Positions 3,888 to 20,887 of a DNA stretch of 64,000 bases are shown here, one piece after another (the first letter of the stretch is position 1; the number at the start of each line of letters is the position of its first letter). The stretch lies in the NCBI GenBank assembly GCA_000092065.1, contig CP000594.1, one strand, 5' to 3'. The stretch comes from Ostreococcus lucimarinus. Its lineage: Eukaryota. The notes beneath the pieces were generated by a model. It was not told where the DNA came from. It worked only from the letters and a program-made list of their open reading frames with translations, and made no database searches. The position numbers were made by a program, and so were the translations under genes.

Positions 3888-4150
3888 CGGTGCGTCAACG
3901 CCCGTCATGGGCGTTCGATTCTCGACCTCGTTGCCACGGATGGTGTTGGCGGAAACCTCGAGTGATAGCGCGGGTGAGTCTCGAACGAACGGGTGAGTTA
4001 CGGGTGAGTCTCGAACGACTGTTTCTTTTCTCGGCCACGCGCGCGTTTTCTTTTGTCCGCCTCTCTCTCTCGCGCGCGTCGTCGAGTGATGCTGGTGCCG
4101 CTCGTGACGGATTTAAGGGCTTGAACACCCGCGTGTAAAGGCAGACACTT

Positions 4151-4230
4151 TATATAGCACTTTGGGAGGTTAAAAGGTGTCCCAAAGTCTCATACATTGG
4201 CCTATACTTTGGCAACATCCCGCGCTTTGA
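4151..4230. repeat. Intergenic repeat module R1 copy A: TATATA-box-like + hairpin CTTTGGGAGG-ttaaaa-...-TCCCAAAG + ATCCCGCGCTTTGA
   Basis: ~80% identical to 16791..16870. The stem shows a compensatory change between copies (GGGAGG/TCCC vs GGGCGG/CGCCC). Confidence 0.6.
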
Positions 4231-4585
4231 TTACAGTACAGTAATATAACCCCCGCCAATGCGCGGGATGAATGGCATACATTCCATAGTATATGGGGAC
4301 CGGACCGGCGGGACGTGTGATTTTTACCGTATGGGTCACGACTCGTCATTCGGAGTACTCGTATGGAATAATGAAACACCATAACTGCATTTACTTTTTG
4401 GTTCATTAAAAAAACCGTACGGGCATTTACTGCAGAATTGGCCACTTTTCGCGCGGGTTTCACTGGACACGTGTCAAAAACGTGGCTTTTCTGAAACTCG
4501 ATTTTTGCTAGGGTTTAGCGTCTCAGTGTCCCGACGGAGATACAGTGCGGGGATCCCGTCGGCAGCACTCTCCGTCGCGCACGCA

Positions 4586-7500
4586 ATGTCGAAGAAATCT
4601 GATCCACTGTATGTACCAGTCAACACGTGTGAAGACGACACAGTCGGTCTTCTTCGGACGATCGATGAAGTTCAAGTAGACGAGGGTGAAACCAACGTTA
4701 CTTCGCCCGAAGATAATAATTGTGACGGCGGCGTTCGAGTAGTAGACATGGTTGGGTTGATACGGAACGGGCTGCATGCGCGGAGGTGCGCGAGCAGACG
4801 ACGGTCCACCGCGATCATCCACGTTTTGTTAACTGTCGTTCTGGCAAGTTTTTTGCGTTCGACCTTGGCGTTTGAAAGGACAGATGGGTTTCAAGGCGAG
4901 CTTGAAGATACCGCACACGAAGGACCGGGAGCATCAAGGAGTTCGGTGGCGAACGAAACCGCGGCGCTGGGGTGTGCATGGGGGATACCTTGTCCGCCAG
5001 TGGCTCAGGCGGTGGTGGATGTCGTGTCAGATCCACATGGTGCTGCCGAAGATGCTGCGAACCTGGCTGGAGATGGACTCAATAGTGCTGTAGATGCAGC
5101 AGCGGCTGGGGCAACATTTTTGTACGATCAAGGGACGGCAGCCGCGAGCGCAGCAGCGGCAGCGGCGACAGAGTTGGCGTCGGCTGGATTTGAATTCGCC
5201 AAGGGTGCGGCCACAAGCGCATACGCGATGGGTTGCTCCGCGGCGGCGATGGCTTGGAACACGGCGACGGCGGTCTATGACCGTATGAGCGACCCAGAAA
5301 AATTTTTGTCAGACATGATTGACAGCTTTCCCACATCTTTGGGGGATTTGAAGTCGCTTTCGGGCAAGGCACTCGCAGTCGGTGGAGAAGCCTTCGTGGA
5401 GATGAATGCGAATAATCCCGTTGGACGCCAAGCGCTCGCTGCTGTCAAAAAGGCAAACGAAATCGGCGGCAAGTACGGTTTCGAGAACCTTCAGAAATTC
5501 ACCGCTGTGGGCGCGTCGTTGACGAATCGCGTTATCCCCGGCGGTGGCATAATTTTTGAAGCCGTGGACGTCGTCGGTGAAACGGCGCAAGATGCTGTGG
5601 ATACTGCGATTCTCATCGTGGAGTCTATGCTCAACGCTCTTGAGTGCAAAGTGTCGCCAGTCGATGTTATGGAGGTGATACAAAAAGTTGTCATCGAACA
5701 AATATCAAGCTGGAATGCGTTTGCGAAAATGTTCGAGGAGAAGAAGGGGACTGACTTCTTCTACAAACTCGATCATGTCATCTGCAATACTCTTTGGACA
5801 GTGGCTATGCCGCATGCGGACTTGATGGTGACGGCGATTGGCGTCCTCCTGGAAAAAGTCCAAGCCACTTGTCCAGGAGTTATCCCAGCGGATTCCAAAC
5901 CAGCAGCTACGCTGGGGTTGATTTTTGACGCGTCTGTAAAAGGGGGCTCAATGAAAGGTGTATCTGCTGAGGTTGGCATCGGTGCTGACATTGATGGGAA
6001 CAAATTTTGCTATTTCGGCTCCTGCGCTTACGCAGGTATATCGTTTGGTGGCTACGGTGCTGATGGGACGATGTTGGCGGGACTCAGTGTTTGGAAGTCT
6101 ATGGATTCAGTTCCGGGCACCTCGAGTACATTTGCGTTCGCGGCCGATATCACCATGCCATTACTCCCCTCGTTTGATCCCGGAGTCACGTTCGTTTCAA
6201 ACGACGCCGGGCTCATCGGCATCAGTGTCTCAAAAGAAATCCCCGGCGGCGACGAACCAAGTGGTGAATTTTCGGTCACGAAAGGGCGATGCGTAACGCC
6301 TGTTTGTGTCAAGACAGATGGTAATCCTTGTGGTGAGGGTCAGGCTGCTTGGTCCGACGTGGGCTCGCATGCGACTGCTGCAGTGGAGGCGATCAAGACG
6401 GATGAGTGCATAGTTGCTGGTGCCGGTGTGATTGAACAAAATGGTGGAATTTCCGTGAGTCGAGAAATCCGGTTACCGGCGTCTGGGGTGAACCTTCTTG
6501 CCGATGCTGAGGCAAACCCGACGGGAATGAAGAATTTTAAGCCCTCAAGCGTGAGGATTCCTGAGGGTAAATTCTTACTTGCGTTTACCGGTGGTGATGA
6601 AGCATTTAAGGGGAGCGAGACAGTGATTCGTAGCTATAAGTCAAAACTCAACAACCGTTTGTATTCAATGACGTCCTTTGTCGTTTCTGACATTGCAGCC
6701 GAGTTTCACGAAGAAGCGCCAAAATCAGTTGGCCCAGAACATGCTGGTTCAATCAGTAAATGTAAAGCGATGTGCGCGGTGAAGAAACACTGCTGCAATA
6801 CGGATGAATCCATCGGAAGTAACCAGTATCTAAGCTGCCTACAGGCATGCGTCGTCCGCGTGCGTGGAACCGACGAGCGGACATGTAACTCTTACTGTGC
6901 ATCTGCAACGACTTCTCGTCACATTAATGGTTACATGTACAACCTCGCAACATCTTGCGCTGATGTCGTTGCATCCGAAGGAAAGTTATGTTCTACTCGG
7001 TACGGTAGCGATCGTTCAACCTGCCTATACGGTTGTTCGATCGGACGCGACCCCGAACAATCGCTCGCAGTCGTCAAATCCACTGGATTCTATATGCAAC
7101 TTCCTGCGGCACATGTTACCCCCAGGTCGACGAATAATTTGCGCGATCGGACGTTGAGTAGTGTGATTGTTCGAGCCGGGTTTGTTGTTAAACTGTACGC
7201 CGGGCGCGACCTGAAAGGTCAATACCTGACGCTCGGGAGTTCGGCGACGCTGTATGGTAACCATGCGAGGTTCTATTCATCCTTACGCGGATCATTCCCG
7301 AACACGAAGTTTGCCTGGGCAAATTTCAATGACAGAACTCGGAGCATCGCCATCTTGGAGGCGCCTGTGACGCTTTATACGCAACCCAATTTCCATGGCG
7401 ATCATGAATCAAAACTTGAGCATGCATTTGACTACACCAGTCTCGGTCCGACAGTCGGGGACAGGCATGTTAATTCCATCTTTCTAAGAGAAGGATCTGT

Positions 7501-10500
7501 GGTTGAAGTATACGAGGGACGCAGTTTCAACGGTCGAGGCATGCAGTTCATATCCAGCGTATCAGATGTCCGCCGCGCAACTGAATCCATCGGTGACCTT
7601 TCTAGACCGACATGGCAAAGAGTTTATGGAACTGCAAGTATGGTTGACGCGGGTCGTGAAGAAGTATATAGTATTCACGCAGATGACGTCGCAAATACAA
7701 AGCCAGTTGATAATTCTGGTGACTGGTCGGACTTTTTGACACTGAAGTGGAGTCATATTTCTGTTGGGCCCACAGGCCATGTATGGGCGATTCGTAAACC
7801 TTACGGCAACGCTTATCACTGCATGCCACATCAAACCTCTTGCAAGACCAAATGGGAGTATACCAGGCTCACCCAGCTGGATGCTGGAAGTTTGTACGTT
7901 TGGGGGGTGACGTACTCGGGATACGTATACAGGCATCTCGTGAACACACACGAGGGTTCATGGACACGTGTAAATGCGCCAGATACGATGAAGCATATCT
8001 CAATAGGCCCAAGTGGCGATGTCTGGGCGGTATCGACGACGAATAAAGTATATTTCTGCGTGCATCCGTGTACTGGATCGTGGCGTGTCATCGGCGCATC
8101 CGCACCCGTAAAACGTCTCATATTTACTGTGAACAATGACAAATATATGGCTCGTGTCGATTTGAAGACTGACGGTAGTATTAATTTCAACGCTGGTCAT
8201 AAAGTAGCTGGCTGGTTGAGTCTAAGCGGAATCACGTACGCCACGAGCGGTCTCAACTATCTTTCCCTAAACTCGCGTTATTGGGAACATTATAGTGGCA
8301 TGAATGGCTACTGGTCGCCAGCCCAATACTCGTGCTCGAACGGCCTCGTTTCTGTGACTGGGCTCGTGAAGACAAAAAATCATGGCTGGGGGCAGGTCAT
8401 CGGTACTCTCCCGTCAGGGTGTCGTCCGACGAAAGCACTCATCTTCACCACGAATAACCACGATGAGCAGGCGCGAGTGAACGTATACGCCGACGGGACG
8501 ATCAAATGGGGTGCCGGCGGCAAGGGTCACGGATGGTTGAGCCTAAGTAACATTGTCTTTTCGACCAGTGGCAACGCGCTTTTACCTCTGAGCAATGGTT
8601 GGGCGCACTACAGTGGCACGAGTGGCTACTGGTCGCCTGCTGAGTACTCGTGCGCCGACGGCCTCGTGGTCTTGAGTGGATTAGTACGCGGTAGTAACTG
8701 GGGTTCTACTATCGGCACTCTTCCTCCGGGTTGTCGTCCGAAACAAGCTCTCATCTTCACCACGAACAACAGCGATAAGCAAGCGCGAGTGAACGTGTCA
8801 CCGGGGGGGGTGATCAAATGGTCACGTGGTGGCAAGGGCCACGGTTGGTTGAGCCTGAGCGGCATCGTATTTGCAATGACTGGGCTGCAGTTGATGCCTC
8901 TGAGCAACGGTTGGAAGTACTATAACGGCGCGAGAACGAGCGGGTATTGGGCACCCGCACAGGTCGCGTCTGTGCGCGGCCTCACCGTTGCTCAAGGCCT
9001 TATCAAAGGCGGTGGATGGGGTGGAACAATGGCAAAAATTACCGGTGGATGCGGATATATGAGTGATTTAATGTCCCTGACTAAGAAGAACGCGGGTCAA
9101 CATAGCACAGCACATAATGGCGTTGCAAGCCGCCCGTTGACGTCGACTCCAAATGGGCGCTGGGGGGGTGGCACGTGCACGCACACGAATCATGCGTCCG
9201 ACCCATGGTGGCGACTTGATATGGGGACGACGAGGACCTTGAGTTCGGTGGAGTTGTTGAATCGCAACGACTGCTGCAGTGACCGCTTTATCGGCCTCCG
9301 CGTCTACATCAGCAATCATAACTCCTACGTAAAGGATCATCCGAGTAACAAACAGTGCGGGCAGACGTTGGGATCGCCGAATACTGCCTGGAATATATTC
9401 GACTGCGGCGATGCCATCTCTGGGCGCTACGTATACGCCACCCTATATGGTAAAGCAGCACCGTTAACTATCTGCGGTGTCAGGATGTTCGAATCAAATA
9501 CGATGATAAAGCAGCTGGACGTTGGAAAGCGCTATGTTTACGGAACCAGTACGAATGGTCATCTTTTTAAAATCCGTGCCGATGGGGGCGAGGATAACTG
9601 GTCCCTCGTACATCGTTATAGCGAATTCGGCGGTATTGATGCCAATTATGTTTCAGTCTCACCGCATTCCGAACAATCGTCGTTCCTGTGGGTTACAAAC
9701 CAAGCGAACGAAATTTATCGCCAATCCATCGGAATACAAATCTCTTCCATGAGAGTCGCCTCGGCAATCGTAACTGCTTACAAAGGTGTGGGATTTACCG
9801 GTGATAGTCTGCCCCTGACTTCCGGTTTTTATAACTTTAAGACGCTCGAGGCAGACTCAGACGCCGGATTTAAGCTCACGAACCTCAGAGCGTTTGTGCG
9901 AAGCATCAAGTCTATAAGGATCCATCCAGACTACGAGGTTGAGCTGCGCGGTTATAATCAAGCACGAGCAGTCGTCACCTCTAGTACAATGGGAGTACAC
10001 GATTTTCATAAACTGGACACAGAGGGCAAGGAACACGAAGAGAATATAGTTGGAGCTACAAGATTTCCGCGACCGAGCGGTGTCTCACGCAAATCGACGT
10101 TTATGCCAATCGAAGCAACTACGCTAGGAACATGGATCCAAACACGAACTGCCAACGTTTACGTGATGTCAGATCTATCAGCCACCCCAAGTGCTCTCAT
10201 TAGGTACATTGCTGCGTACGGCGATGCAGAATATTGCAAAATGATCATGTTTCACGTGCGTCACGGCGATGAAGTCTCTGTTGTGCCTGAGGAGGCTGGA
10301 TATGCGACTTTTGGCATCAGAGATGCGTCTTCCGACAAGTGTCAGAATCGCGACGGTGTACTATCGCTCTGGCGTATAAAGCAAACTCCGAGATTGGCGC
10401 GCCGCGCGACAGATGCAGGCTACGGCATCGGAAAGTTGAAATTCTCGATTTTGGGAGGCTGGACGGGAGAAATAGCCTCAATGAAAGTGATGAGAAAACT

Positions 10501-10996
10501 CACTTATGTCCAAGGGTACTCCGGTGGCCGTCATCGTAATGAGGGAGGAAATCCAAAACGGACTCCACGAGAATGTCGGGACATCGCTAAAAGCAAGGGT
10601 TTACCTGCCTGGGGATTTCGAACCGGCCGTCATAATGATCCTAACTGGCGGTTTACGTGCTTCTTTTATGAGCACGGATTTGGGAGATTTGCGGGTAATG
10701 ATGACACAATGCATATGACAGGATGCGTCGATATATCCCGAAAGACCGCAAATGGCTGCGCACTGAGCGCATCAGCCAGCGCGCGGTTGGGTTCTGAAGA
10801 CTTAGAGACTTACCCTCGCGCGATGGCGAGACCAAAGGCGAGACTGCTAGAATCAGACTGGTACTATATCTCTGTCTGCTGTGTTCTCGTCAGCCTAGCG
10901 TCTGTGGTAGCGTTCGTCGCATTTCGACGCTCGCGAACGTCGGGCAAACGCATTCTACTTGAACGAGTCTCAACGAACTACGGTGCCACAATTTAA
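4586..10996 (+). CDS. Giant (~2,100 aa) membrane-anchored multi-lectin protein: N-terminal Ala/Gly-rich region, beta/gamma-crystallin-like segment, tectonin-type beta-propeller repeats, three ~105-aa tandem repeats, F5/8-type-C/fucolectin-like domain, C-terminal TM helix + short tail
   Basis: Single ORF listed 4505..10996 with a TTG start; the first ATG is at 4586 (MSKKSDP) and an alternative at 4748 (MVGLIR) is followed by a hydrophobic signal/anchor. Three tandem repeats (IFTxNNxDxxARVxxxxDGxIxxxxGxKxxGWLSLS...GYWSPAxYSCxxGLV). A CCSDRFIGLRVYI fucolectin-like motif. C-terminal WYYISVCCVLVSLASVVAFVAF TM helix. Confidence 0.7.
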   Translation: MSKKSDPLYVPVNTCEDDTVGLLRTIDEVQVDEGETNVTSPEDNNCDGGVRVVDMVGLIRNGLHARRCASRRRSTAIIHVLLTVVLASFLRSTLAFERTDGFQGELEDTAHEGPGASRSSVANETAALGCAWGIPCPPVAQAVVDVVSDPHGAAEDAANLAGDGLNSAVDAAAAGATFLYDQGTAAASAAAAAATELASAGFEFAKGAATSAYAMGCSAAAMAWNTATAVYDRMSDPEKFLSDMIDSFPTSLGDLKSLSGKALAVGGEAFVEMNANNPVGRQALAAVKKANEIGGKYGFENLQKFTAVGASLTNRVIPGGGIIFEAVDVVGETAQDAVDTAILIVESMLNALECKVSPVDVMEVIQKVVIEQISSWNAFAKMFEEKKGTDFFYKLDHVICNTLWTVAMPHADLMVTAIGVLLEKVQATCPGVIPADSKPAATLGLIFDASVKGGSMKGVSAEVGIGADIDGNKFCYFGSCAYAGISFGGYGADGTMLAGLSVWKSMDSVPGTSSTFAFAADITMPLLPSFDPGVTFVSNDAGLIGISVSKEIPGGDEPSGEFSVTKGRCVTPVCVKTDGNPCGEGQAAWSDVGSHATAAVEAIKTDECIVAGAGVIEQNGGISVSREIRLPASGVNLLADAEANPTGMKNFKPSSVRIPEGKFLLAFTGGDEAFKGSETVIRSYKSKLNNRLYSMTSFVVSDIAAEFHEEAPKSVGPEHAGSISKCKAMCAVKKHCCNTDESIGSNQYLSCLQACVVRVRGTDERTCNSYCASATTSRHINGYMYNLATSCADVVASEGKLCSTRYGSDRSTCLYGCSIGRDPEQSLAVVKSTGFYMQLPAAHVTPRSTNNLRDRTLSSVIVRAGFVVKLYAGRDLKGQYLTLGSSATLYGNHARFYSSLRGSFPNTKFAWANFNDRTRSIAILEAPVTLYTQPNFHGDHESKLEHAFDYTSLGPTVGDRHVNSIFLREGSVVEVYEGRSFNGRGMQFISSVSDVRRATESIGDLSRPTWQRVYGTASMVDAGREEVYSIHADDVANTKPVDNSGDWSDFLTLKWSHISVGPTGHVWAIRKPYGNAYHCMPHQTSCKTKWEYTRLTQLDAGSLYVWGVTYSGYVYRHLVNTHEGSWTRVNAPDTMKHISIGPSGDVWAVSTTNKVYFCVHPCTGSWRVIGASAPVKRLIFTVNNDKYMARVDLKTDGSINFNAGHKVAGWLSLSGITYATSGLNYLSLNSRYWEHYSGMNGYWSPAQYSCSNGLVSVTGLVKTKNHGWGQVIGTLPSGCRPTKALIFTTNNHDEQARVNVYADGTIKWGAGGKGHGWLSLSNIVFSTSGNALLPLSNGWAHYSGTSGYWSPAEYSCADGLVVLSGLVRGSNWGSTIGTLPPGCRPKQALIFTTNNSDKQARVNVSPGGVIKWSRGGKGHGWLSLSGIVFAMTGLQLMPLSNGWKYYNGARTSGYWAPAQVASVRGLTVAQGLIKGGGWGGTMAKITGGCGYMSDLMSLTKKNAGQHSTAHNGVASRPLTSTPNGRWGGGTCTHTNHASDPWWRLDMGTTRTLSSVELLNRNDCCSDRFIGLRVYISNHNSYVKDHPSNKQCGQTLGSPNTAWNIFDCGDAISGRYVYATLYGKAAPLTICGVRMFESNTMIKQLDVGKRYVYGTSTNGHLFKIRADGGEDNWSLVHRYSEFGGIDANYVSVSPHSEQSSFLWVTNQANEIYRQSIGIQISSMRVASAIVTAYKGVGFTGDSLPLTSGFYNFKTLEADSDAGFKLTNLRAFVRSIKSIRIHPDYEVELRGYNQARAVVTSSTMGVHDFHKLDTEGKEHEENIVGATRFPRPSGVSRKSTFMPIEATTLGTWIQTRTANVYVMSDLSATPSALIRYIAAYGDAEYCKMIMFHVRHGDEVSVVPEEAGYATFGIRDASSDKCQNRDGVLSLWRIKQTPRLARRATDAGYGIGKLKFSILGGWTGEIASMKVMRKLTYVQGYSGGRHRNEGGNPKRTPRECRDIAKSKGLPAWGFRTGRHNDPNWRFTCFFYEHGFGRFAGNDDTMHMTGCVDISRKTANGCALSASASARLGSEDLETYPRAMARPKARLLESDWYYISVCCVLVSLASVVAFVAFRRSRTSGKRILLERVSTNYGATI

Positions 10997-11265
10997 ACAA
11001 ATCATTTCAAACCATCCTATTATTGGCATTGTGGTAAGTACAATCGACCTCACGGAAAAGGCAGGCGGTACTGGCGTCGAAGAGTCGCGTGAGATTTCGC
11101 TTAAGATTTCGGCACCCTCGCTTAAGATCTCTTCAGAATCGAATCTCTGAACGCAAGGCGTGGATGTACATTAAACCATGAACGAGGCGGGACACGGTTC
11201 GATTTTTGGATTACAAGTGTAGGTCTACTTTTACGTTTCGTGGACTCCGCTCGAGTCGGCCGATG

Positions 11266-12075
11266 TCACCATGTCAGGTGTTTCGAGTGCACTAGAGACG
11301 TGACCGCCGATACACAGGACGTCGAGCTCGGCGTGCCTGATTTCACGACTCGGCGACCATGGTTTGAAACCGAAATGACCATCGGCTTCAGGCCCAGGCG
11401 CGGCCGCAATGCTACTTTAAACTTAATTTTTTTTTTTTGAAAAAAGAGTAGTAAGAGTAATAAAAATAAACTTTTTTTTTGTTTGAGTTGGGGCCCCCCC
11501 AACATGATAAAACCGCACATCGACGTTGATGTACCACATGTAAGATTTCTCCGGGAACCAATCGTGTGAGTGAAGTGGTCAAACCAAGCCACGCAACTCA
11601 TCGACCGTAAATTGATACTTGTCGAGACTGCGCTTCGAAGGCAGCGTGCCGCGCGCTCGAGCATTCTTGAGGCACGTCTTACGCAGTATCTTTTCGCGTG
11701 CTGCTTGTAATAATTGAGTTGTCTGTAGTTACCATCGCCGCCGTCCCGCTTCGGCGTATATTGAGCTCTGCTGTAGGCCGGACTCTCGTCCACGTTCTCG
11801 TGGCACGCCTGCTTCTGGCTGCGTCCAGTAGCTCGGGAGTTGAATAAGCCGTCACGCTTCTCTCTCATGTAGGCACTTTTACGTTGATGGAGCTCTCCAG
11901 CTGGAATGTCCTTTTCGAGAACTCTCACGTCCGCGTCGCCAAACGTGAAGATTGGATGCCGTGCGTATTTATGCGAGGCAAGGCGCGCTCTGATCGAACC
12001 TGTCGTCGATCCGATGTACGTTTTGTCACATTTCGCATTATCGCTATACATTTCGTACACGCATCCCGACGGCAT
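11266..12075 (-). CDS. GIY-YIG family (homing-type) endonuclease; C-terminal ~90 codons run through a poly(A/T) tract without a stop (possibly decaying)
   Basis: N-terminus CVYEMYSDNAKCDKTYIGSTTGSIRARLASHKY matches the GIY-YIG motif (GIY...YIGS...R...H; compare I-TevI GIYQIKNTLNNKVYVGSAKDFEKRWKRH). Downstream E...N (REKRDGLFNS) fits. Low-GC codon usage. Confidence 0.55.
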   Translation of the reverse strand: MPSGCVYEMYSDNAKCDKTYIGSTTGSIRARLASHKYARHPIFTFGDADVRVLEKDIPAGELHQRKSAYMREKRDGLFNSRATGRSQKQACHENVDESPAYSRAQYTPKRDGGDGNYRQLNYYKQHAKRYCVRRASRMLERAARCLRSAVSTSINLRSMSCVAWFDHFTHTIGSRRNLTCGTSTSMCGFIMLGGPQLKQKKSLFLLLLLLFFQKKKIKFKVALRPRLGLKPMVISVSNHGRRVVKSGTPSSTSCVSAVTSLVHSKHLTW

Positions 12076-12244
12076 TTGTCCTGGTTACCTATCTATCCCT
12101 AAGAAAATATTGTTGCCTCCTCCTGCGGTTTGCAGTCACATTCGAGAGACCATAGGTACTCGTGTCGCTGCGTGGGGTGCAAGGTCCGGGATGTAGATAT
12201 CGAACCGCCCGATTTCACACCTGGACGTTCGTGATCCGTCGAGA

Positions 12245-12435
12245 CCTGACGAAATGACGAACTTGTTTTGTCGTCCCGAAATTCGTCAGCCCGTCGTTCG
12301 GTCACACTTTGTGTGTACCAATGATGAAAATGACGAAATGTTAAAATATTTTAATGTTTATTTTTATTTTAGATCTATGACAAGCAACAGTGTAGACCTT
12401 TATGAAAACAGTTCGTCATTCGTCATTTCGTCAGG
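12245..12435. promoter_or_regulatory. Inverted repeat (CCTGACGAAATGACGAAC / GTTCGTCATTCGTCATTTCGTCAGG) flanking an AT-rich core between the D5 3' end and the GIY-YIG 5' end
   Basis: Arms at 12245..12262 and 12411..12435 are near-perfect reverse complements. The core 12325..12375 is >80% AT. Confidence 0.35.
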
Positions 12436-12500
12436 ATCCAAACCATGGTCTTTTTGGTGTCTTGTTGAGTCTTCATATTGCAAATGTACGAATTACAAAA

Positions 12501-14711
12501 TTAGTATGAGCACCAGACGACCGCCGGCGCGAGCTCCGTCTCCCCCGTGTACCCATTGTTCTTCAGCCACTCGAAGCACCCGTCGCGGTCAATTTCCCAA
12601 TAAACGCCCTTCTCGTCCCTACCTTGCCTCAGGTGGTCCTCTTGCATTGGGACCCTGTGGCCCTTTTCCTTCTTGAAGAAGTCCTTGAGCTTATTACCGA
12701 CCTTCGTCGCGCTATCTTGACCGCGCGCAGCCGCTGGCAACCACGTCTGGTATTCGATGAAGATGTCACTGTTGCGGATTTTATTTCCAACCCACTTCTC
12801 AGGGAATTCAACAGTGACGCAATGCTCAAACCATCGAGTGAACTTGGGCATGCATCCACGCTTCATTTCCGAATACGCATCGGTCGTAGGTCTGTCTTTG
12901 ACGTAGTCAAAGGTCGATAGGTCGAGCCCCATGAGATGGTCGTAGATTGCCCTCAAGTTCCTCGGATCCCTGATGTAAACCTCGCGGAATTCCTTCAAGA
13001 ATCCAGTCTGGTCGTTCAAGTGCGTGAGCAGTGGCTCCATGACGACGAACCGACGATCACTCATTTCCAGAAAGACCGGGTAGTCGTCGTTCGAGAAAAA
13101 TAGGAACCCAACCAGATTCATGATGACGTACAGCTGCACGTGCTTCGGGTTGATTGTGAAACTCGTGTCCGTGAGCATCGACTTCAGCAACTTTCTATAC
13201 ATTTTCATGATGCACTCATCTGCTTCGTTCAACGCGAGGCACTTTTTGCCTTCAATCATGTTCGCATGCGTCCCAAATATGTCCTTTTTCGGATCAGCCG
13301 TCTCGTGAAACGTCTTGCCCATGAGCGCGTGAAGCAGGTGCAGGAAAGTGCCCTTGCCGGTACCTTGGACTCCTCGAAACACGAGCGACGTGATCGGCTT
13401 CTCTTCGGGTCTCTGGAAGAGACACGCGAACCAATTCGAAGCGTACTCGAGCGCATTTTCTGAACCGCCACATAGCACCAGGAGGAGCTCGAGGAAAGGC
13501 TTCACGTCGCCCTCTTTGCCCAGTTCACTGGGGATGCCTTCGACCGGGTAGCCTCGCCACAGATTGTACGTCTTGTTGCTGCAGTTTTTCGGGACGACGT
13601 CGAGGTTATCGTACACCCGTTTATTGTCGTCGTCGAGCCACTTTTCGATGAACCCGTTTTTCTTGCCTTTCCTCAAGACACCGTTCTCATCGACAAAGGA
13701 GAGCTCTCGATAGCGCCTCACCAAAGCGGCCTCGCTGTACTTGGTAATGTCCCCGGTGGTTCCATAACAGCTATCGTCGCAGAAGAGGTCCTTGGTTAAG
13801 ATCTTTGCGACGTGCTTCTCGAACTCACGGCGGACCTCGATGTAGCCCGCAGACGTGCCCTCTTTGATTTCGTTCTGCTCCTTTTCGGTGATACCGGTCA
13901 CCAAACACCCAACCTCAAAGCGAAACTGTCTGGGCTTGCAGTTGCCATGGTTTTTCACGGTGAGCACGCCGAGACCGACCTCGGCGACGTAAAAGTGATT
14001 CCCACCGCCCCTTCCATTGCCTTCGTGGAAGCCCCCACAGCAAGGACATTGGCCCACAGTGGTGCCTCGCTGTGGGCGACATTGGTCGCATTCAAAATCA
14101 TACGATGTCGCTCCACTGAGCCAATGTATGCCCGTGAACCCCATTTCCTCGAGCAAAGGTGTCACAGATGCTTGCGTAAAGCTGCACTCCGTGTCCGCGC
14201 GTTCGACCTTGTGACCGACTTTGCCATCAAGGAAACTGTACAAATCGTTGGGCATCGGTGGTAAATTGTTGATGTCGCCTCGGAGTAGCTCGTAGCCCGG
14301 GGCATCGGCACCGACCACGTAGTTACCCGTCGTACGGATATCGACGAACCCTTCGATGCCCACCGTGCCTTTCCAATCGCCGAATCGTTCTTCGTCCCAT
14401 GCGAAGTACGTGTGGTACCCGCCTGATCGCGTTTTGACGATATACGCGCCTTCCCCGCCGACCTTGCGCGTCAACATTTCTTCCGTGAGTTCAAACTCGC
14501 ACTTGCCACCGTAACAATCCCAGTCGATGACGAGGACACGGTTCGGTCGCCCTGTCAGCACGCCGTACATTTCTCCTGGGATGACTTTCTGCGTATTCCG
14601 TTCATAGTTTGCTTCATCGAGGAACCCCCTGCCGCATGTTGGCTCCTTGTCCTGGTCGAGTGGGATCAGATGCATGCCGTTCGTAAATTCTCTGGCGTCC
14701 ATATATATCAC
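12501..14711 (-). CDS. D5-like primase-helicase: N-terminal PrimPol (archaeo-eukaryotic primase) domain, D5_N, SF3 helicase (NCLDV/PLV/virophage/phage-P4 type)
   Basis: 736-aa ORF. PrimPol motifs (VLVIDWDCYGG...GGYHTYF...FVDIRTTGNYVVGA). Walker A VFRGVQGTGKGT and Walker B CLALNEADE of an SF3 helicase. Low-GC codon usage. Confidence 0.85.
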   Translation of the reverse strand: MIYMDAREFTNGMHLIPLDQDKEPTCGRGFLDEANYERNTQKVIPGEMYGVLTGRPNRVLVIDWDCYGGKCEFELTEEMLTRKVGGEGAYIVKTRSGGYHTYFAWDEERFGDWKGTVGIEGFVDIRTTGNYVVGADAPGYELLRGDINNLPPMPNDLYSFLDGKVGHKVERADTECSFTQASVTPLLEEMGFTGIHWLSGATSYDFECDQCRPQRGTTVGQCPCCGGFHEGNGRGGGNHFYVAEVGLGVLTVKNHGNCKPRQFRFEVGCLVTGITEKEQNEIKEGTSAGYIEVRREFEKHVAKILTKDLFCDDSCYGTTGDITKYSEAALVRRYRELSFVDENGVLRKGKKNGFIEKWLDDDNKRVYDNLDVVPKNCSNKTYNLWRGYPVEGIPSELGKEGDVKPFLELLLVLCGGSENALEYASNWFACLFQRPEEKPITSLVFRGVQGTGKGTFLHLLHALMGKTFHETADPKKDIFGTHANMIEGKKCLALNEADECIMKMYRKLLKSMLTDTSFTINPKHVQLYVIMNLVGFLFFSNDDYPVFLEMSDRRFVVMEPLLTHLNDQTGFLKEFREVYIRDPRNLRAIYDHLMGLDLSTFDYVKDRPTTDAYSEMKRGCMPKFTRWFEHCVTVEFPEKWVGNKIRNSDIFIEYQTWLPAAARGQDSATKVGNKLKDFFKKEKGHRVPMQEDHLRQGRDEKGVYWEIDRDGCFEWLKNNGYTGETELAPAVVWCSY

Positions 14712-15181
14712 ATAAGAAAAGAATTCTTTAAGCCGTGTTTTTCCTGGTCACATCGGCGCGATGACTGATTTTCAAGTTTTTCAACAGCCTGGAAAAGCAC
14801 GCCAGCACGCCCCACTGGTCAACATTTTGCCACTTTTTCGACGAGATCGGGGTACTGCAAAGCACACGGCGAAGACGGGTGGCCGATGATCCATGTGTCC
14901 GTGTCTTCTCTGATGATTCGCTCCCGTTCATGGCTCAAGTGGTCGCGCGACCTCGCGCGTGAACGAAGGTGCCAAATTTTAGGTACCAGAGGTGCCCATT
15001 TCTTCGTGGTGAGATGGTCCCTCGTGTACCACGCCGCTCCCCTTTAAGTATGAAAAGTTATGTCCAATATATTGCGCGCGATGTCCGATGGTACACCATA
15101 CAATTTCATAGTTAAGCCACACTTATTATATGACGACAGTGCCTACCTGTCGGTGGTCACGGAAAAGTTGCGTCTCAGACT

Positions 15182-15320
15182 GAGGATGGCGTGGCTCATG
15201 CGAGCTATATATACCTCATATATACATATATTAACACTTATAACACTATTAATGTACAATTGATTGGATGAGGTGCTCAGTCCACCCGCGCGAGGTCAAC
15301 AGCAGCAATTGTCTATGCAC
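15182..15320. repeat. Direct repeat R2 copy A (~140 bp), includes the last ~20 nt and 3' flank of the metallothionein-like CDS
   Basis: ~90% identical to 16869..17008. Confidence 0.6.
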
Positions 15321-15643
15321 TTGGAGCATGAGTTTTTGCACTCGCACGACGGACACGCGCAGGAGGTGCATCCGCACGACTTACACGTGGTCGCATCGGG
15401 ACACGCGCATTTGTCGGGGCCACAAGCATCACAGTCTTTCGGGCAGCACGCCTTGTCCGTGGACTCAGATTGTACCGTCCGTGCTGCAACCCGCGTCGGG
15501 CGCGAGACGACGCGCACGGCGCGTGGCGCGGTTCTTGACAATACGAAATCTGGTATCTGCGTACTCTTTACCTTAACGGCGGAGACTTTGAGCATTGTTG
15601 CGTCGAGGAATGGGCCAAGGGTAAGTAACCTCGTGGTCGGCAC
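15296..15643 (-). CDS. Metallothionein-like cysteine-rich protein (19 Cys in the C-terminal 50 aa) with a Cys-free, transit-peptide-like 65-aa N-terminal extension
   Basis: C-terminus CCPKDCDACGPDKCACPDATTCKSCGCTSCACPSCECKNSCSKCIDNCCC. The N-terminus is S/T/R/V/A-rich with few acidic residues. Head-to-head with ferritin. Confidence 0.5.
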   Translation of the reverse strand: MPTTRLLTLGPFLDATMLKVSAVKVKSTQIPDFVLSRTAPRAVRVVSRPTRVAARTVQSESTDKACCPKDCDACGPDKCACPDATTCKSCGCTSCACPSCECKNSCSKCIDNCCC

Positions 15644-15684
15644 GTGCCCGCCTTATACAATCGACGCCTGAAAAGGGAGACTGG

Positions 15685-16542
15685 ATGAGATCGAGGGCAC
15701 CCCGTGAGCGATCACTCTTCGACGCGGAACTCGTTCCTGTAGACGGCCAGCCACCACTCGAACGACCATACGGCAGCACAAAAGTACATCCACAACGTGT
15801 ACGTATCGAAATGGCTGCCTATACTCAAGCGACGTTAACAGCACCTTCGTCGTCGACAGCCGTAAGCAATTCGAAGATAAGACTACGCCGTTCACGAACA
15901 ACTACGCGCACACATTCTGATCCGTCCGAAAGTACGCCGTTGAGTGAAGAGGCGCAAATCATAGTTGATGCATCGGAGGCGTACCCAGCGCAGACAAGCG
16001 TGGATTATTCGTTCGCAAGGAGTGGGTTCAGTAACCAGTGTGAACGAGCACTCAACGAGCAAATCAATGTCGAGTACAATATTTCGTACGTCTATCACGC
16101 CATGTGGGCGTACTTCAATCGTGACAATATCGCATTGGCTGGCTTTGCTGAACACTTTCGAAAAGAGTCACTGGAGGAGCGTGCGCATGCGGAACAACTC
16201 ATGGAGTACATGAACTTACGAGGCGGCAAAGTTGAGCTCCAACAATTGTTACCACCACAGAGTGAATACGATCGCCCGGAGAAAGGATGCGCACTATTAG
16301 CCCTGGAGCTGAGTTTGAGTCTCGAAAAGTTGAATAAAGAGAAACTGTGTGAACTGCATCGCGTCGCTGAGGATGCAGGAGACGCACATATGTGCGATTT
16401 TATTGAAGGCGAGTTATTAGACTCGCAGGTTCAAAGTGTGCGACAGGTTAGCGAGATGGTCGCCACGCTATTACGCATGGGACCGCCAGCAGATGGTATG
16501 GCAACTTGGCACTTCGATCAAACCTTACTTGAGGTGGCATAG
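15685..16542 (+). CDS. Ferritin (plant/algal type, with N-terminal targeting/extension peptide; alternative start ATG at 15811)
   Basis: QCERALNEQINVEYNISYVYHAMWAYFNRDNIALAGFAEHFRKESLEERAHAEQLMEYMNLRGGKV...SLEKLNKEKL...WHFDQTLLE matches the plant ferritin consensus (ferroxidase-centre residues E, Y, E..H present). Confidence 0.9.
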   Translation: MRSRAPRERSLFDAELVPVDGQPPLERPYGSTKVHPQRVRIEMAAYTQATLTAPSSSTAVSNSKIRLRRSRTTTRTHSDPSESTPLSEEAQIIVDASEAYPAQTSVDYSFARSGFSNQCERALNEQINVEYNISYVYHAMWAYFNRDNIALAGFAEHFRKESLEERAHAEQLMEYMNLRGGKVELQQLLPPQSEYDRPEKGCALLALELSLSLEKLNKEKLCELHRVAEDAGDAHMCDFIEGELLDSQVQSVRQVSEMVATLLRMGPPADGMATWHFDQTLLEVA

Positions 16543-16652
16543 AAGCGGATTGTATCTCGTTGAGTCTAGTCACTTTCGTGTGCTCGTTTCGTTGGTTTCT
16601 GGTTACGAGTTCTTCCGTTGTTCTAAATATAACATATATTTAGACATATCCA

Positions 16653-16779
16653 AACCCTAGTACAATCACCCTAGGGTTTAGTCAAACTTTAATCAGTTTT
16701 ATCTAAATTAATTTTCATCTGTCGTCGCGAAAGATGAATCCTCGCGACAGAAAAACAGGTCTAAACCTTAAACCCTAAC
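16653..16779. repeat. Cluster of telomere-like / telo-box motifs (AAACCCTAG, CCCTAGGGTTTAG, TAAACCTTAAACCCTAAC)
   Basis: TAGGGTTTAG equals 1.5 units of the plant-type TTTAGGG telomeric repeat. Similar motifs occur at 4509..4518 and 19091..19106. Confidence 0.5.
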
Positions 16780-16790
16780 TTCGGTTGGGC

Positions 16791-16870
16791 TATATAGCAC
16801 TTTGGGCGGTTAAAACCGCGCCCAAAGCCCCATATATTGTCCCATGTTTCGGCCAAATCCCGCGCTTTGA
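16791..16870. repeat. Repeat module R1 copy B (hairpin CTTTGGGCGG-ttaaaa-CCGCGCCCAAAG)
   Basis: Homologous to 4151..4230; abuts R2 copy B. Confidence 0.6.
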
Positions 16871-17008
16871 GGATGGCGTGGCTCATGCGACCTATATATG
16901 CCTCATGCGTACATATATTAACATTTATAAGGGTATTAATACATAATTGATTGGATGGGGTGCTCAGTCCACCCGCGCGAGGTCAACAGCAGCAATTGTC
17001 TTTGCACT
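16869..17008. repeat. Direct repeat R2 copy B
   Basis: ~90% identical to 15182..15320. Confidence 0.6.
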
Positions 17009-17040
17009 GATCAGTCCGTGTTTGACAAGGAGACGTTCGC
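16983..17040 (-). pseudogene. Fragment of a metallothionein-like gene 3' end (...PCQTRTDQCKDNCCC*), duplicated with R2
   Basis: Reverse-strand translation ends ...QCKDNCCC-TGA, paralleling ...SKCIDNCCC-TGA of the 15296..15643 gene. No upstream ORF. Confidence 0.3.
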
Positions 17041-17177
17041 GCGAAAGTGAGTGGAGTGAGATAAGCAAAATTGGGATTTTTTGTTATTTAAAATGACTTC
17101 TTTTATATCGACGATCTTGTCTCGATTATACGCTGACCTTCGCGGGTGCTTGTTGTACTTGTACGTACACGACCCAG

Positions 17178-18968
17178 CTAGTCCGCTTTGTTGTGGATCT
17201 TGTCGCACTTGTCGAAAGCGTATGCGGCGACGGTACTGCTGACCCCGGACGGATCAAAGACTGATGCGAGCTCAGCTGCCGCGCGGACCGCATCCGTCTC
17301 TGATTCCGCGCTGTTTACGTTTTTCATCGCAGAAAAATAGCCGGTAGTCTTACCAACCGCCTCCATACCTTGGTCGAGACTATTTGCCGCCTTTTTCAAA
17401 GCAGCAAGCTTACTCCCAGCTTCGGCAACGTTAGCACCGGCACGGGCTGCAGCCTTGGCCCCAGTTGTCGCAGCTCCACTACTCCCAGCGGTCGCTACAA
17501 ATGCAATAATTTCCAACGGCCCGAGAATCATATTAGTTACCGCGGAGCCACAAGCGGCGTCATCTTTTGCGGCACCCATACCGCAGTTCACCCACTTCTC
17601 ACCGCTCACTGTTGGAGGTTGGCCCCAGCAAACTGGACCGACGCCATTGTAACCACTGCGACATTTCTTGTAACACAAACCAGCGTCGTACTCCAAACCA
17701 GGAGGACACGTGGCTGCTTCAAAGCCGTGTGAGCAGTATATCTTTTTCGGGCAACTCGGCGCAATTCCATGTGCGTACCCATTGCCGGTGCAAGAAACGC
17801 CGCACAAGTTGCAGCCAATCCGGTTCGGATGACTGCTAGGGCAAGGAGGATAACAAAGTCCAAGACAGTCTTGTCTTCCTTTTCTGCTACAGTGCCTTCC
17901 GCCGCATACGAGTCTTGTCCTCGCGTTCCCCAAAAGGCGTCGACCGTTGGCCGCATGTTCGCCAAGGGTGGATGATGATGATGACCAGTACTCCCAGCCA
18001 CACTGGACGGTACCAACACCACGACCGCGGTTACCTCTGTTACAAAAAAGACCATGATCATTCCAGCCCGAGCCGCAGCGTTGATGGCAGTCGTAGCCAA
18101 ATCTGGCATAATTACCGAGGTGGTGGCATTTGGTATAGCACAAGACGCCCCCTGCAATTGTTTCTTTATTGGAAGGGCAATGAGACGGGACTTTGCCCAC
18201 ATCGCGGCCGTATGAGTTTTTCCAACAGAACTCGACGGTGATGGCGTTCGCAACGACAGCACCCTTCGCATTCGACGCAGCACTTACACCATCACTAAAG
18301 CTGTCCCATTTTCCGCCCAACCGAGCAGATAGCATCGCTTCGTGTACCTCCAATAATGCCTTGTCTTGCTCAATCTCTTCGTGCAGTTTTTGCATATATG
18401 CTGAGACGTTCACTGGCGCCGGTTGCGTCGCACCCTCATCCACCGTGGCCTGCCAAACGAAGTTCGAATGCTCATCATTAGCAAGATTTTCATCGTCACG
18501 CCTGCGCAAATGTTGTTTAAGCATCTTAATTCGTAATAGCGTCGCGTTTCTTCCGCCCTTGGTCGATATGAACATGCCATCCTCGGCTCCTGCCGCATTC
18601 AACCTGGGTTCGGCACCTGGGATCACCTCCCCAGGACCCGCACTCCCGAGCAACGCGTGGACTTCTGGACCGAATTCCATCTCGTCAACGAATTCGTCCA
18701 AGTGATCAGGGAGATCAAATTCACCCTGGATCGAGTGCGCGGACAATCCCAGCAACGCAGACGGCCCTTTCGGTGCACTTTCACGGTACGAGAACGAAAT
18801 CACACCCACAGCAAACAGCACAGCGGCCTGCTTCACGGTACACCAGCCGCATGCCGCCGCTTTTCGCCCTTCACGTTCCTCCGTTTGTTGCCAACTGCGA
18901 GCGCCGTCGTTCGACGAGCCGGGCGCGCCGTATGTCTCACTAATCGCCGCCGCTTCGTACGTCGGCAT
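17178..18968 (-). CDS. Cysteine-rich type-II membrane protein (N-terminal signal anchor, coiled region, GCC2/GCC3- or EGF-like Cys repeats, C-terminal Ala-rich module)
   Basis: 596-aa ORF. TM helix AAVLFAVGVISFSY. Repeated CxxC...GY...G..C spacing (CYPPCPSSHPNRIGCNLCGVSC, CYKKCRSGYNGVGPVCWG). C-terminal AAARAGANVAEAGSKLAALKKAANSLDQG resembles the Ala-rich N-terminal part of the 4586..10996 protein (QALAAVKKANEIGGKYG). Confidence 0.6.
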   Translation of the reverse strand: MPTYEAAAISETYGAPGSSNDGARSWQQTEEREGRKAAACGWCTVKQAAVLFAVGVISFSYRESAPKGPSALLGLSAHSIQGEFDLPDHLDEFVDEMEFGPEVHALLGSAGPGEVIPGAEPRLNAAGAEDGMFISTKGGRNATLLRIKMLKQHLRRRDDENLANDEHSNFVWQATVDEGATQPAPVNVSAYMQKLHEEIEQDKALLEVHEAMLSARLGGKWDSFSDGVSAASNAKGAVVANAITVEFCWKNSYGRDVGKVPSHCPSNKETIAGGVLCYTKCHHLGNYARFGYDCHQRCGSGWNDHGLFCNRGNRGRGVGTVQCGWEYWSSSSSTLGEHAANGRRLLGNARTRLVCGGRHCSRKGRQDCLGLCYPPCPSSHPNRIGCNLCGVSCTGNGYAHGIAPSCPKKIYCSHGFEAATCPPGLEYDAGLCYKKCRSGYNGVGPVCWGQPPTVSGEKWVNCGMGAAKDDAACGSAVTNMILGPLEIIAFVATAGSSGAATTGAKAAARAGANVAEAGSKLAALKKAANSLDQGMEAVGKTTGYFSAMKNVNSAESETDAVRAAAELASVFDPSGVSSTVAAYAFDKCDKIHNKAD

Positions 18969-19090
18969 AGTTTGTTCCTTTAGTCGAGCGTCGGATTGTG
19001 GCGAAACGGCGGGTGCCCTCGGTCGGTCGGACGGACTTTCGCGGTCGGTCGGACGAGGGGCCCGTTGGCGCCCCGCGGGTGTGTGTACCA

Positions 19091-19106
19091 GCCCTTAGGG
19101 TTTAAT
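19091..19106. repeat. Telomere-like motif CCCTTAGGGTTTAATG at the island/host boundary
   Basis: Sequence seen directly; lies just upstream of the GC jump at ~19,200. Confidence 0.4.
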
Positions 19107-20008: not shown

Positions 20009-20887
20009 ATGCCACCGCCGACGCGCGCGACGCCCGCGCGCGGCGCGCCCGACGTCGCCCGCGAGTGGGCGGCCGCGGGCGTCGGGTGCGCGCTCGCGGA
20101 CACGGTGTTCAACCCGCTCGAGGTGCTCAAGGTTCGCGCGCAACAACGACCGGACGCGGTCGCGCTGCGAGCGCTCGCGCGCGAGGCGATCGCGCGCGAT
20201 GGATTCGCGCGGGGCTTGCTCGCGCCGGGACTCGCGGCGACGTGGATGCGAGGGCTGTCGTACACGGGGTTTCGAATCGGGCTGTACCCGACGACGCGGG
20301 ACGAGGCGCTGCGCGTCTTCGGCGGCGACGGCGTCGGCGCGCGAGTGCTCGCGGGGGCGGTCACGGGCGGGATAGGCGCGGTGGTGTTTAATCCGATCGA
20401 CGTCGTGCGAGTGCGGATGCAATCGAGCGAGTGCGGGTATCGAAGCACGGTGGGGGCGTTCGCGGAGGTGGCGAGAGAGGAAGGCGTGAGACGCGGATTG
20501 TGGCGAGGCGCGGGGGCGTGCGTGGCGCGCGCGATGACGCTGTCGGGGTCGCAGTTAGCGACGTATGATGTCAGTAAACGATGGTTGTTGAAAAATGGGA
20601 CGTTTAGCGAGGACGCGCCGCCGTTGCACTTTACGTGCTCGTTCGCGAGCGGCGTCGTCGCGCAAACCGTCACGCAACCCGTGGACACGCTCAAGACGCT
20701 CGTCATGTCCAACGTCGGCGACAAGCGAGGCGCGATGACCATCGCGCGCGATGTCATCGCCAATCACGGCGTTCGCGGGTTATACAGGGGCTACTTTGCC
20801 GCAGCCGCGCGACAAGGTCCAGTCATGACGCTCCAAATGCCCATAGTAGAGGCGCTCAGAAGATTTTTGGGCCTCGAATACTTTTGA
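20009..20887 (+). CDS. Mitochondrial carrier family protein (~292 aa)
   Basis: Three carrier repeats (NPLEVLKVRAQ, NPIDVVRVRMQ, QPVDTLKTL) with six predicted TM segments. ATG at 20009; the upstream part of listed ORF 19478.. is spurious. Confidence 0.8.
   Translation: MPPPTRATPARGAPDVAREWAAAGVGCALADTVFNPLEVLKVRAQQRPDAVALRALAREAIARDGFARGLLAPGLAATWMRGLSYTGFRIGLYPTTRDEALRVFGGDGVGARVLAGAVTGGIGAVVFNPIDVVRVRMQSSECGYRSTVGAFAEVAREEGVRRGLWRGAGACVARAMTLSGSQLATYDVSKRWLLKNGTFSEDAPPLHFTCSFASGVVAQTVTQPVDTLKTLVMSNVGDKRGAMTIARDVIANHGVRGLYRGYFAAAARQGPVMTLQMPIVEALRRFLGLEYF

Follow-up and report, generated by a model that had tools for sequence, protein, structure and literature searches.

Why is a virus-type replication gene kept, intact and under selection, in the nuclear genome of an alga? 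Ostreococcus, the smallest free-living eukaryote, is a model of the arms race between algae and viruses, and its low-GC hypervariable regions have been linked to virus resistance. The question is raised by a locus of Ostreococcus lucimarinus CCE9901 on contig CP000594.1 (assembly GCA_000092065.1), within a stretch of 64,000 nucleotides that was analysed as a whole and is called the window here. Two genes lie next to each other on the minus strand of this locus. One encodes a replicase that combines an archaeo-eukaryotic primase (AEP) domain with a superfamily 3 (SF3) helicase, and the other, downstream, is a GIY-YIG gene of the homing type. Their open reading frames (ORFs) had been pointed out in a first-pass annotation, and both were found, at 12501-14711 (736 amino acids, aa) and 11266-12075 (269 aa). 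We consider it probable (about 0.7) that the locus is the replication module of a Mamiellophyceae polinton-like virus (PLV), resident in the nuclear genome without capsid, packaging and integration genes. The solo replicase is a leftover or recruited piece of an already known type of integrated virus. Related contigs, genome-like or metagenomic, are referred to by L numbers (L001, L009 etc.) and related proteins by P numbers; the coordinates of the features are collected in Table 1.

The replicase and its relatives

The length of 736 aa is counted from an upstream GTG. From the ATG, the protein has the same 733 aa as the metagenomic orthologues P0001 and P0110. It consists of the AEP domain (approximately aa 1-160), a Cys-rich segment of the form CxxC...CPCCG..H (approximately aa 205-250), a D5N-like linker with the SF3 helicase (approximately aa 345-625) and a C-terminal alpha/beta domain (approximately aa 640-730). 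The helicase half matches Pfam DUF5906 above the cutoff (2e-14, aa 445-554), the PHROG family 'DNA primase' (2e-30) and, in the PDB, the C-terminal/helicase region of NrS-1 (6e-12 when the sequence is used alone, 9e-32 with a profile of 14 sequences). Its motifs are intact, namely Walker A (GVQGTGKGT), Walker B (LALNEAD), motif C (FFSN) and SDRRF, and G447, G449, K450, N538, R550 and R551 are invariant in the aligned relatives. The AEP motifs DxD (D60, D62), SGGYH (93-97) and DIR (121-123) are likewise invariant or nearly so in 14 aligned sequences. The replicase itself has no match to Pfam Prim-Pol (PF09250) at E ≤ 0.1; this family is matched by 11 of the 14 aligned relatives, with a best value of 1e-39, and the relatives of 81-84% identity are flagged as weak. 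Neither D5_N (PF08706) nor Pox_D5 (PF03288) is listed for the window replicase at E ≤ 10, and Pox_D5 matches one relative only, at 0.036. From the PrimPol/D5_N/SF3 architecture proposed at first pass, the SF3 part is carried by the DUF5906 match and the PrimPol part by the motifs and the relatives, and Pfam D5_N is undetected.

The AlphaFold (AF2) model of the replicase has a pLDDT of 77.8. Its fold matches NrS-1, monkeypox E5 and vaccinia D5, the SaPI5 primase-helicase, PriRep1 and the PrimPol of African swine fever virus (ASFV). The region ahead of the helicase core aligns structurally with NrS-1 and D5. The helicase match by Foldseek reaches 4e-18; over its full length, the model is aligned by Foldseek to monkeypox E5 'with clear primase domain' at a high root-mean-square deviation. 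Among the predicted viral structures of BFVD, the entry 'DNA helicase/primase/polymerase [Qinghai Lake virophage]' ranks first of those with a label (E 7e-30). These results support the view, already taken at first pass, that the 733-aa protein is an AEP-SF3 primase-helicase of the type found in viruses and self-replicating mobile elements and no ordinary cellular replication gene.

The replicase is intact and under purifying selection; it is therefore functional and still in use, and it is not simply decaying. The dN/dS ratio is 0.07-0.13 against environmental variants of 97-98% identity and 0.19-0.21 against a copy of 81% identity. The replicases of L006, L007 and L008 show 12-14 synonymous differences and no non-synonymous ones. 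The GC content at third codon positions (GC3) is 0.695, as compared with 0.65-0.70 in host core genes and 0.49-0.55 in the neighbours within the island. When proteins were clustered at 90%, the replicase cluster had 601 members and the clusters of the GIY-YIG gene 898, 122 and 43. These are several-fold larger than the clusters of neighbouring core genes (94-193). Close relatives of the replicase are found only in environmental Ostreococcus-like sequences. The superfamily of the helicase half has 15,394 representatives at 50% identity (E ≤ 1e-3), whereas full-length relatives amount to only about a dozen such representatives, with 33-37% identity. Searches of GenBank phages by tblastn returned only P4-type primases of 23-30% identity and no virophage, and an exact look-up of the 733-aa protein returned nothing. 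The gene goes unmentioned in papers on the outlier chromosomes of Ostreococcus and Bathycoccus.

Three full-length relatives (33-35%) were retrieved with their contigs, L002, L004 and L005, which are 10-21 kb in length with 41-48% GC. They have in common a gene of approximately 330 aa followed by one of approximately 440 aa. L004 has a lipase-like gene, weakly similar to the lipase of L009, and L002 and L005 have a recombinase-like gene. GIY-YIG and HNH genes adjoin the replicase on these small contigs. The GIY-YIG relatives do so in the PLV-like contigs L002 and L005 and also in L096, and the L002 homologue is 46% identical to the GIY-YIG gene of the window.

A closer copy of the replicase, with 81% identity, is present in two genome-like assemblies, L001 (112 kb) and L009 (949 kb). 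In both, it lies inside a block of approximately 17.8 kb that is bounded by inverted repeats approximately 17.7 kb apart. Its genes encode a pair of paralogues (404 and 476 aa) whose LLRHxxxS...Y end is tyrosine-recombinase-like, a coiled-coil protein, the replicase, a small transmembrane (TM) protein, a 308-aa ATPase with Walker A and B motifs that is packaging-ATPase-like, a 374-aa protein with a capsid candidate next to it, a lipase with the motif GHSQG and an 875-aa fibre-like protein. Upstream of the block, a 375-aa ORF that is paralogous to the fibre and has the C-terminal region in common with it shows a near-threshold match to the endosialidase chaperone (Peptidase_S74). The capsid candidate P0394 (435 aa) has counterparts of 436-449 aa on the small contigs, and in all cases it follows a gene of 330-374 aa. 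The candidate and a small-contig protein are related by hhalign (92%, E 6e-7), and homologous ORFs are found on chromosomes of Bathycoccus prasinos. Because it combines recombinase-like, packaging-ATPase-like, capsid-candidate, lipase and fibre genes, the block looks, from its gene content, like an endogenous PLV.

The capsid candidate is split by a frameshift at 15235-16541 in L009 and 15288-16411 in L001, both of which are long-read assemblies. It is intact in P0394 and apparently in L107; the split is either a pseudogene or a homopolymer assembly error. A repeat family of approximately 300 bp with telo-box-like AAACCCTA units occurs at 4236-4520 of the window, at 4117-4421 and 21880-22175 of L009 and at 21793-22088 of L094. 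The window copy lies upstream of a 2163-aa gene and shares 80% identity with the inverted sequences at the ends of the L009 block. The repeat could be the terminal repeat of the element or a shared promoter cassette, the latter because it also precedes unrelated genes and carries the telo-box-like units. In the window, 4151-4230 resembles 16791-16870.

When the genes of the L009/L001 block and of L002, L004 and L005 were all run by tblastn against the 64 kb of the window, only the replicase, a small-gene relic and the GIY-YIG gene came up, with no homologue of a capsid, ATPase or integrase gene. The capsid, packaging and integration genes are therefore missing from the window, as the first-pass annotation had noted. 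The same annotation had left the choice between a new kind of integrated element and a relic. The relic is the better option; a new kind is disfavoured by the 81% copy in a PLV-type block and by the fact that PLVs are known.

Copies of the replicase region show mobility and mosaicism. L001 has two replicase copies, with 82% and 95% DNA identity to that of the window. Downstream of the GIY-YIG gene, the sequence differs in L006, L007, L094 and L097; L094 contains partial duplicates, and its copy is located 16 kb from a contig end. L095 is a chimera that is 95% L009-like for 930 nt and diverged beyond. In L097, a window-type replicase end and GIY-YIG gene lie approximately 5 kb from genes resembling tyrosine recombinases (Yrec-like). 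A further type with 84% identity, known from three independent metagenome assemblies, has telomere repeats, (TTTAGGG)n, 0.6 kb after the replicase stop and in the orientation that is correct for an end (L096 3864-3957; L103 approximately 1193-1236; L105 approximately 4189-4265). The repeats set in at approximately codon 29 of the ATPase-like gene, and GIY-YIG and HNH genes are located upstream. The 84% type has the appearance of a terminal break that healed next to the replicase, or of a copy in a subtelomeric position, and it is possibly a telomere-capped linear replicon. Telomere repeats were also looked for in the 64-kb window, and none were found.

A candidate origin and a homing-type insertion

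Directly 3' of the replicase is a palindrome. Its outer inverted repeat is perfect over 17 of 17 nt (12245-12261 and 12419-12435). The heptamer TGACGAA occurs 22 times in the window, and seven of these occurrences fall within 187 bp, where the mean of shuffled windows predicts approximately 0.05. As single-stranded DNA, the palindrome folds better than all 200 shuffles (z = -3.5). The outer stem is retained through 5-7 two-sided substitutions between the copy types, which represent few independent events because the sequences form essentially two groups. By analogy with related primase-helicases, the palindrome is most likely the origin recognised by the replicase, and it is treated here as a candidate.

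A small gene converges on the replicase from the other side of the palindrome. Its intact form (L009 12462-12659, minus strand) encodes 65 aa with a TM helix and a CHxVRCxCFEC motif, and intact forms are also present in L001, L094, L096, L101, L103, L105 and L107. In the window, the gene has a 1-nt deletion after codon 9 or so, and its stop codon TGA has become CGA. The distal arm of the palindrome directly joins the 65-aa gene in L001, L009 and L096. On its 5' side, the replicase is preceded by a conserved flank that presumably contains the promoter. L003, L006 and L008, in which it is 97% identical, all end at window positions 15081-15095, and the homology to the second L001 copy stops at 15020. 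L094 has the flank twice, at 9467-10130 and 20388-20779, inverted relative to each other. A 141-nt repeat around the ferritin gene was considered as the cause of the contig ends at approximately 15090. This explanation was rejected; the repeat begins 90 nt further on.

The GIY-YIG gene is annotated at 269 aa, whereas orthologues of 95-98% identity have 165 aa and end in ...KYQFTVDELRGLV. The reference is without one A in GAAAAGAATAC near 11690. The frame shifts after about codon 129 and, as a result of the missing A, continues through an A/T-rich 3' region to give 269 aa. Judged against the orthologues, the longer reading is a frameshift artefact. The ORF itself has no match in Pfam (including PF01541), PHROG or NCBIfam, and a PDB sequence search with the GIY-YIG profile returned nothing. 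Its class, as proposed at first pass, is suggested by the aligned relatives, 9 of 11 of which match PF01541 (best 6.5e-7; the window sequence itself is unmatched), and by the AF2 model, whose best fold match is the catalytic domain of I-TevI (probability 1.0, TM-score 0.60, E 0.027). The UniProt label of A4S7M1 is 'GIY-YIG domain-containing'. Y7, Y20-G22, R31, H35 and N79 are conserved. The Glu of the REG motif, conserved in relatives of 45-60%, is replaced by Lys-Ser (K66/S67) throughout the window clade, so that nuclease activity is doubtful even with an intact frame. The pN/pS ratio is 0.24-0.5.

The gene is part of an 883-bp insertion in one arm, the distal one, of the palindrome 3' of the replicase, between the palindrome and the small convergent gene. 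The insertion is missing at the same junction in L001, L009 and L096, in which the palindrome arm abuts sequence that matches 11363-11279. It is carried by all the window-type metagenome contigs (11/11), and L009-type and L096-type copies are without it. A gene that is present or missing at one exact point of DNA otherwise shared between copies is expected of a mobile, free-standing homing endonuclease. On this comparison of copies, the behaviour of the GIY-YIG gene is that of a selfish insertion of the homing type, broken in CCE9901.

How the locus may have arisen

If the locus is the replication module of a PLV, its working can be sketched from solved relatives (NrS-1, poxvirus D5/E5, SaPI and PriRep1). 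The replicase would assemble into a hexameric SF3 ring that melts and unwinds the origin, and the AEP domain would lay primers or short DNA. The palindrome directly downstream would be the origin that the replicase recognises. The GIY-YIG gene would have been inserted later into the distal palindrome arm and then frameshifted in CCE9901, and the small neighbouring gene would have decayed too. The replicase may supply its function in trans to related PLV copies elsewhere in the genome or in the population, perhaps when prasinoviruses infect the cell, or it may serve the host.

Several points weigh against this reading. The label 'PLV' describes the descent of one gene, because the window contains no PLV structural gene. 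The host-core-like GC3 of the replicase and its conservation in many strains also fit a domesticated host gene. Scans of IMG/VR brought up no close relative for any of three queries; with the replicase they returned only helicase-half matches of 25-31% on contigs of 4-70 kb, and with the capsid candidate and the GIY-YIG gene they returned nothing. The capsid candidate has no Pfam or PDB sequence match, and its double jelly roll is putative. The recombinase-like and ATPase-like genes also have no significant Pfam or PDB matches and were assigned from motifs read by eye. Finally, the origin role of the palindrome is an analogy. The palindrome could be a bidirectional terminator, because it sits between convergent genes.

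The replicase may have been captured from a PLV long ago and now work for the alga, which is less likely than the preferred reading but far from negligible. Possible roles are interference with the replication of prasinoviruses or PLVs, and replication or repair of chromosome ends in the manner of fungal subtelomeric helicase genes. Such domestication would account for the purifying selection, the GC3 that resembles the host and not the island neighbours, the solo state in the window and the spread over many strains and metagenomes (the 601-member cluster). It also fits the telomere adjacency of the 84% type in its three independent assemblies and the position of L094 close to a contig end. 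However, an active element would equally show purifying selection. The copies are mosaic and vary in flanks and number, and the same gene is found within the full PLV-like block in L009 and near the Yrec-like genes in L097. Moreover, selfish GIY-YIG and HNH genes cluster around the replicase, as they do in virus genomes. Rather unlikely is a still complete PLV of which the locus is one end, with the other genes left of the window or split off by host-gene insertions. Such an element would have to be reconciled with a left-hand 11 kb that contains the 2163-aa tectonin/discoidin gene and no PLV gene, a right-hand 49 kb of ordinary host genes (ferritin, mitochondrial carrier, ABCF and others), the decay of the small gene and the frameshift of the GIY-YIG gene. 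Its supports are the 80% identity of the 4236-4520 repeat to the ends of the L009 block, the arrangement in L097 and the low-GC island, which extends to the left edge of the window. The repeat, however, may be a shared promoter, as it also precedes unrelated genes.

An inserted fragment of a giant virus, namely the D5 helicase-primase of a prasinovirus or another nucleocytoplasmic large DNA virus (NCLDV), is very improbable, even though the fold resembles poxvirus D5/E5 and ASFV PrimPol, several NCLDV entries are among the BFVD matches and prasinovirus fragments are known on the outlier chromosome of O. tauri (PMC5498103). With 10-16% identity, the NCLDV matches are remote, and matches of the virophage and NrS-1 types rank higher. 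Pfam Pox_D5 and D5_N are undetected in the window protein. The full-length relatives retrieved with their contigs lie on contigs of 10-21 kb or in the 17.8-kb block, and none on a contig of giant-virus size. A vertically inherited cellular primase-polymerase gene, which the intact ORF with its host-like GC3 might suggest, is scarcely credible. Copy number and location are variable, homing endonuclease genes and virus-like gene blocks are associated with the replicase, the close relatives are confined to environmental Ostreococcus-like sequences, and where contigs of the next full-length relatives (33-37%) were retrieved, these are small and virus-like.

A bolder version of host use, which we regard as doubtful, is that the AEP-SF3 enzyme is retained by the host to act at chromosome ends or in hypervariable low-GC islands and is no longer a virus gene. 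If this were true, the enzyme might prime and unwind at the TGACGAA palindrome and thereby drive local amplification or rearrangement, or it might poison the replication of incoming prasinoviruses and PLVs. The telomere-capped copies would then be a replicase-bearing subtelomeric or linear replicon.

Genomic setting and known systems

The region of the two genes has a GC content of 51.7%, and positions 1-19000 of the window 51.8%, compared with 60.6% in the rest of the window, in agreement with the low GC noted at first pass. The neighbours are the 2163-aa tectonin/discoidin protein, a metallothionein-like ORF, ferritin and a Cys-rich 596-aa protein, followed by ordinary host genes.

Table 1. 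Features of the locus and its neighbourhood in the window of O. lucimarinus contig CP000594.1.
Feature	Position	Strand	Remarks
Giant surface-protein-like gene	4505-10996	+	2163 aa; Tectonin, F5/8 type C, crystallin domains
Decayed small gene, convergent on replicase	11178-11363	+	Intact 65-aa counterpart in L009
Annotated GIY-YIG ORF XP_001421478, 269 aa	11266-12075	-	Frameshift-extended reading
883-bp insertion with GIY-YIG gene, own upstream region and A/T-rich tail	11364-12246	-	Presence/absence at exact junction
GIY-YIG nuclease gene, 165 aa when intact	11579-12075	-	Frameshift comparison, family relatives, I-TevI-like fold
Iteron-rich palindrome with AT-rich centre	12245-12450		Immediately 3' of replicase; candidate origin
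AEP (Prim-Pol) - Cys-rich - SF3 helicase replicase	12501-14702	-	733 aa from ATG at 14702
Conserved 5' flank of replicase, presumed promoter region	14712-15095	-	97% identity in L003, L006, L008
115-aa ORF	15296-15643	-	Metallothionein-like; extremely Cys-rich C-terminus (…CCPKDCDACGPDKCACPDATTCKSCGCTSCACPSCECKNSCSKCIDNCCC)
Cys-rich ORFan XP_001421481, 596 aa	17178-18968	-	Cluster of only 9 members

The giant surface-protein-like genes beside the module vary by strain. That of L006 (4135-12596, minus strand) has a product longer than 4236 aa, in which TIG, G8 and F5/8 type C domains occur, and the two giant proteins share a single stretch of 142 aa (61% identity). Just past the 2163-aa gene, three tandem copies of TCGCTTAAGATYTC are present at 11085-11131, and this segment is kept in L006 and L094 despite their differing flanks. 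The metallothionein-like ORF is head-to-head with the ferritin gene (15685-16542, plus strand), and its final 31 codons recur in L094 and L108. This pair of genes is flanked by the 141-nt direct repeat (15181-15321 and 16868-17008, 90% identical), at which all metagenome contigs with the ferritin gene end. Part of the repeat, 15224-15299, resembles 1475-1550 of the PLV-like contig L002 (80-84%). XP_001421481 aligns over 494 aa, at 29% identity, with a 682-aa ORF of L094 (17990-20038, plus strand), which also adjoins a replicase region. As far as these two sequences indicate, the family is a second one that travels with such islands. At the right-hand edge of the island, a short repeat (18999-19104) recurs in L094 (7402-7870, 21104-21722), L097, L100, L106 and L108. 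It is found in both orientations and surrounds the replicase regions of those contigs.

The locus is best described as a solo replicase of a Mamiellophyceae PLV lineage, a fusion of AEP with an SF3 helicase (AEP-S3H), together with an insertion of the homing-endonuclease type. A PLV replication gene persists intact and under selection in a low-GC region although the capsid genes are gone. The locus offers as handles the replicase gene, a candidate origin sequence, telomere-adjacent copies in a sister lineage and the insertion polymorphism, which can be used as a strain marker. With them one could ask if the endogenous PLV genes of picoalgae act as parasites, serve in defence or drive genome plasticity. 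The reference annotation is corrected in that XP_001421478 is a frameshifted 165-aa gene.

AEP-S3H fusions are a standard and common replication module of PLVs (PMC11161782; bioRxiv 10.64898/2026.06.19.733378). The replicase resembles such proteins of PLVs and virophages, for example that of the Qinghai Lake virophage, in domain order and intact motifs. However, it stands alone in a host chromosome with a host-like GC3, and with named virophage proteins it shares only approximately 18-22% sequence identity. Endogenous PLVs with a prasinophyte-specific capsid group have been described in Micromonas and in Bathycoccus, where they carry tyrosine recombinases (PMC10675990), and Ostreococcus has one or two genes for the major capsid protein (MCP) (PMC10120064). 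Among these Mamiellophyceae PLVs (MCP group 2/6), the L009 block is like those of Bathycoccus in its recombinase-like genes, lipase, ATPase and inverted ends, whereas only the replicase is present at the O. lucimarinus locus. The Bathycoccus elements are described with a 'TVpol-S3H' (PMC10675990 / PMC10120064) and differ in this from the AEP-S3H seen here; they may not be the same elements as the loci of the capsid homologues. The name 'TVpol' was considered for the replicase and rejected, since TV-Pol denotes a fusion of PolA with S3H (10.64898/2026.06.19.733378).

The GIY-YIG gene shares with free-standing nucleases of the I-TevI type the GIY, YIG, Arg and Asn motifs, a predicted I-TevI-like fold, the small size, a helical C-terminal tail and presence/absence at one exact intergenic site. 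It differs from them in the replacement of the active-site Glu by Lys-Ser in the window clade and in the frameshift of the CCE9901 copy, and cleavage is putative. A functional analogy is offered by subtelomeric helicase genes, such as those of yeast Y' elements and the fungal telomere-linked RecQ helicases. Like them, the replicase belongs to a helicase gene family of variable copy number, and in one lineage it is found beside telomeres. However, the subtelomeric helicases belong to an unrelated helicase superfamily, and telomere adjacency of the replicase is seen in the 84% type only. NrS-1, SaPI5, PriRep1, phage P4 alpha and poxvirus D5/E5 are like the replicase in helicase core and overall fold. 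They differ from it in sequence (10-18% identity), in the eukaryotic host here and in the Cys-rich middle segment, which is specific to the replicase family. In SaPI rep-ori and the P4-type primase-helicases, an iteron-containing or AT-rich element is located just 3' of the gene, as is the palindrome of the O. lucimarinus replicase.

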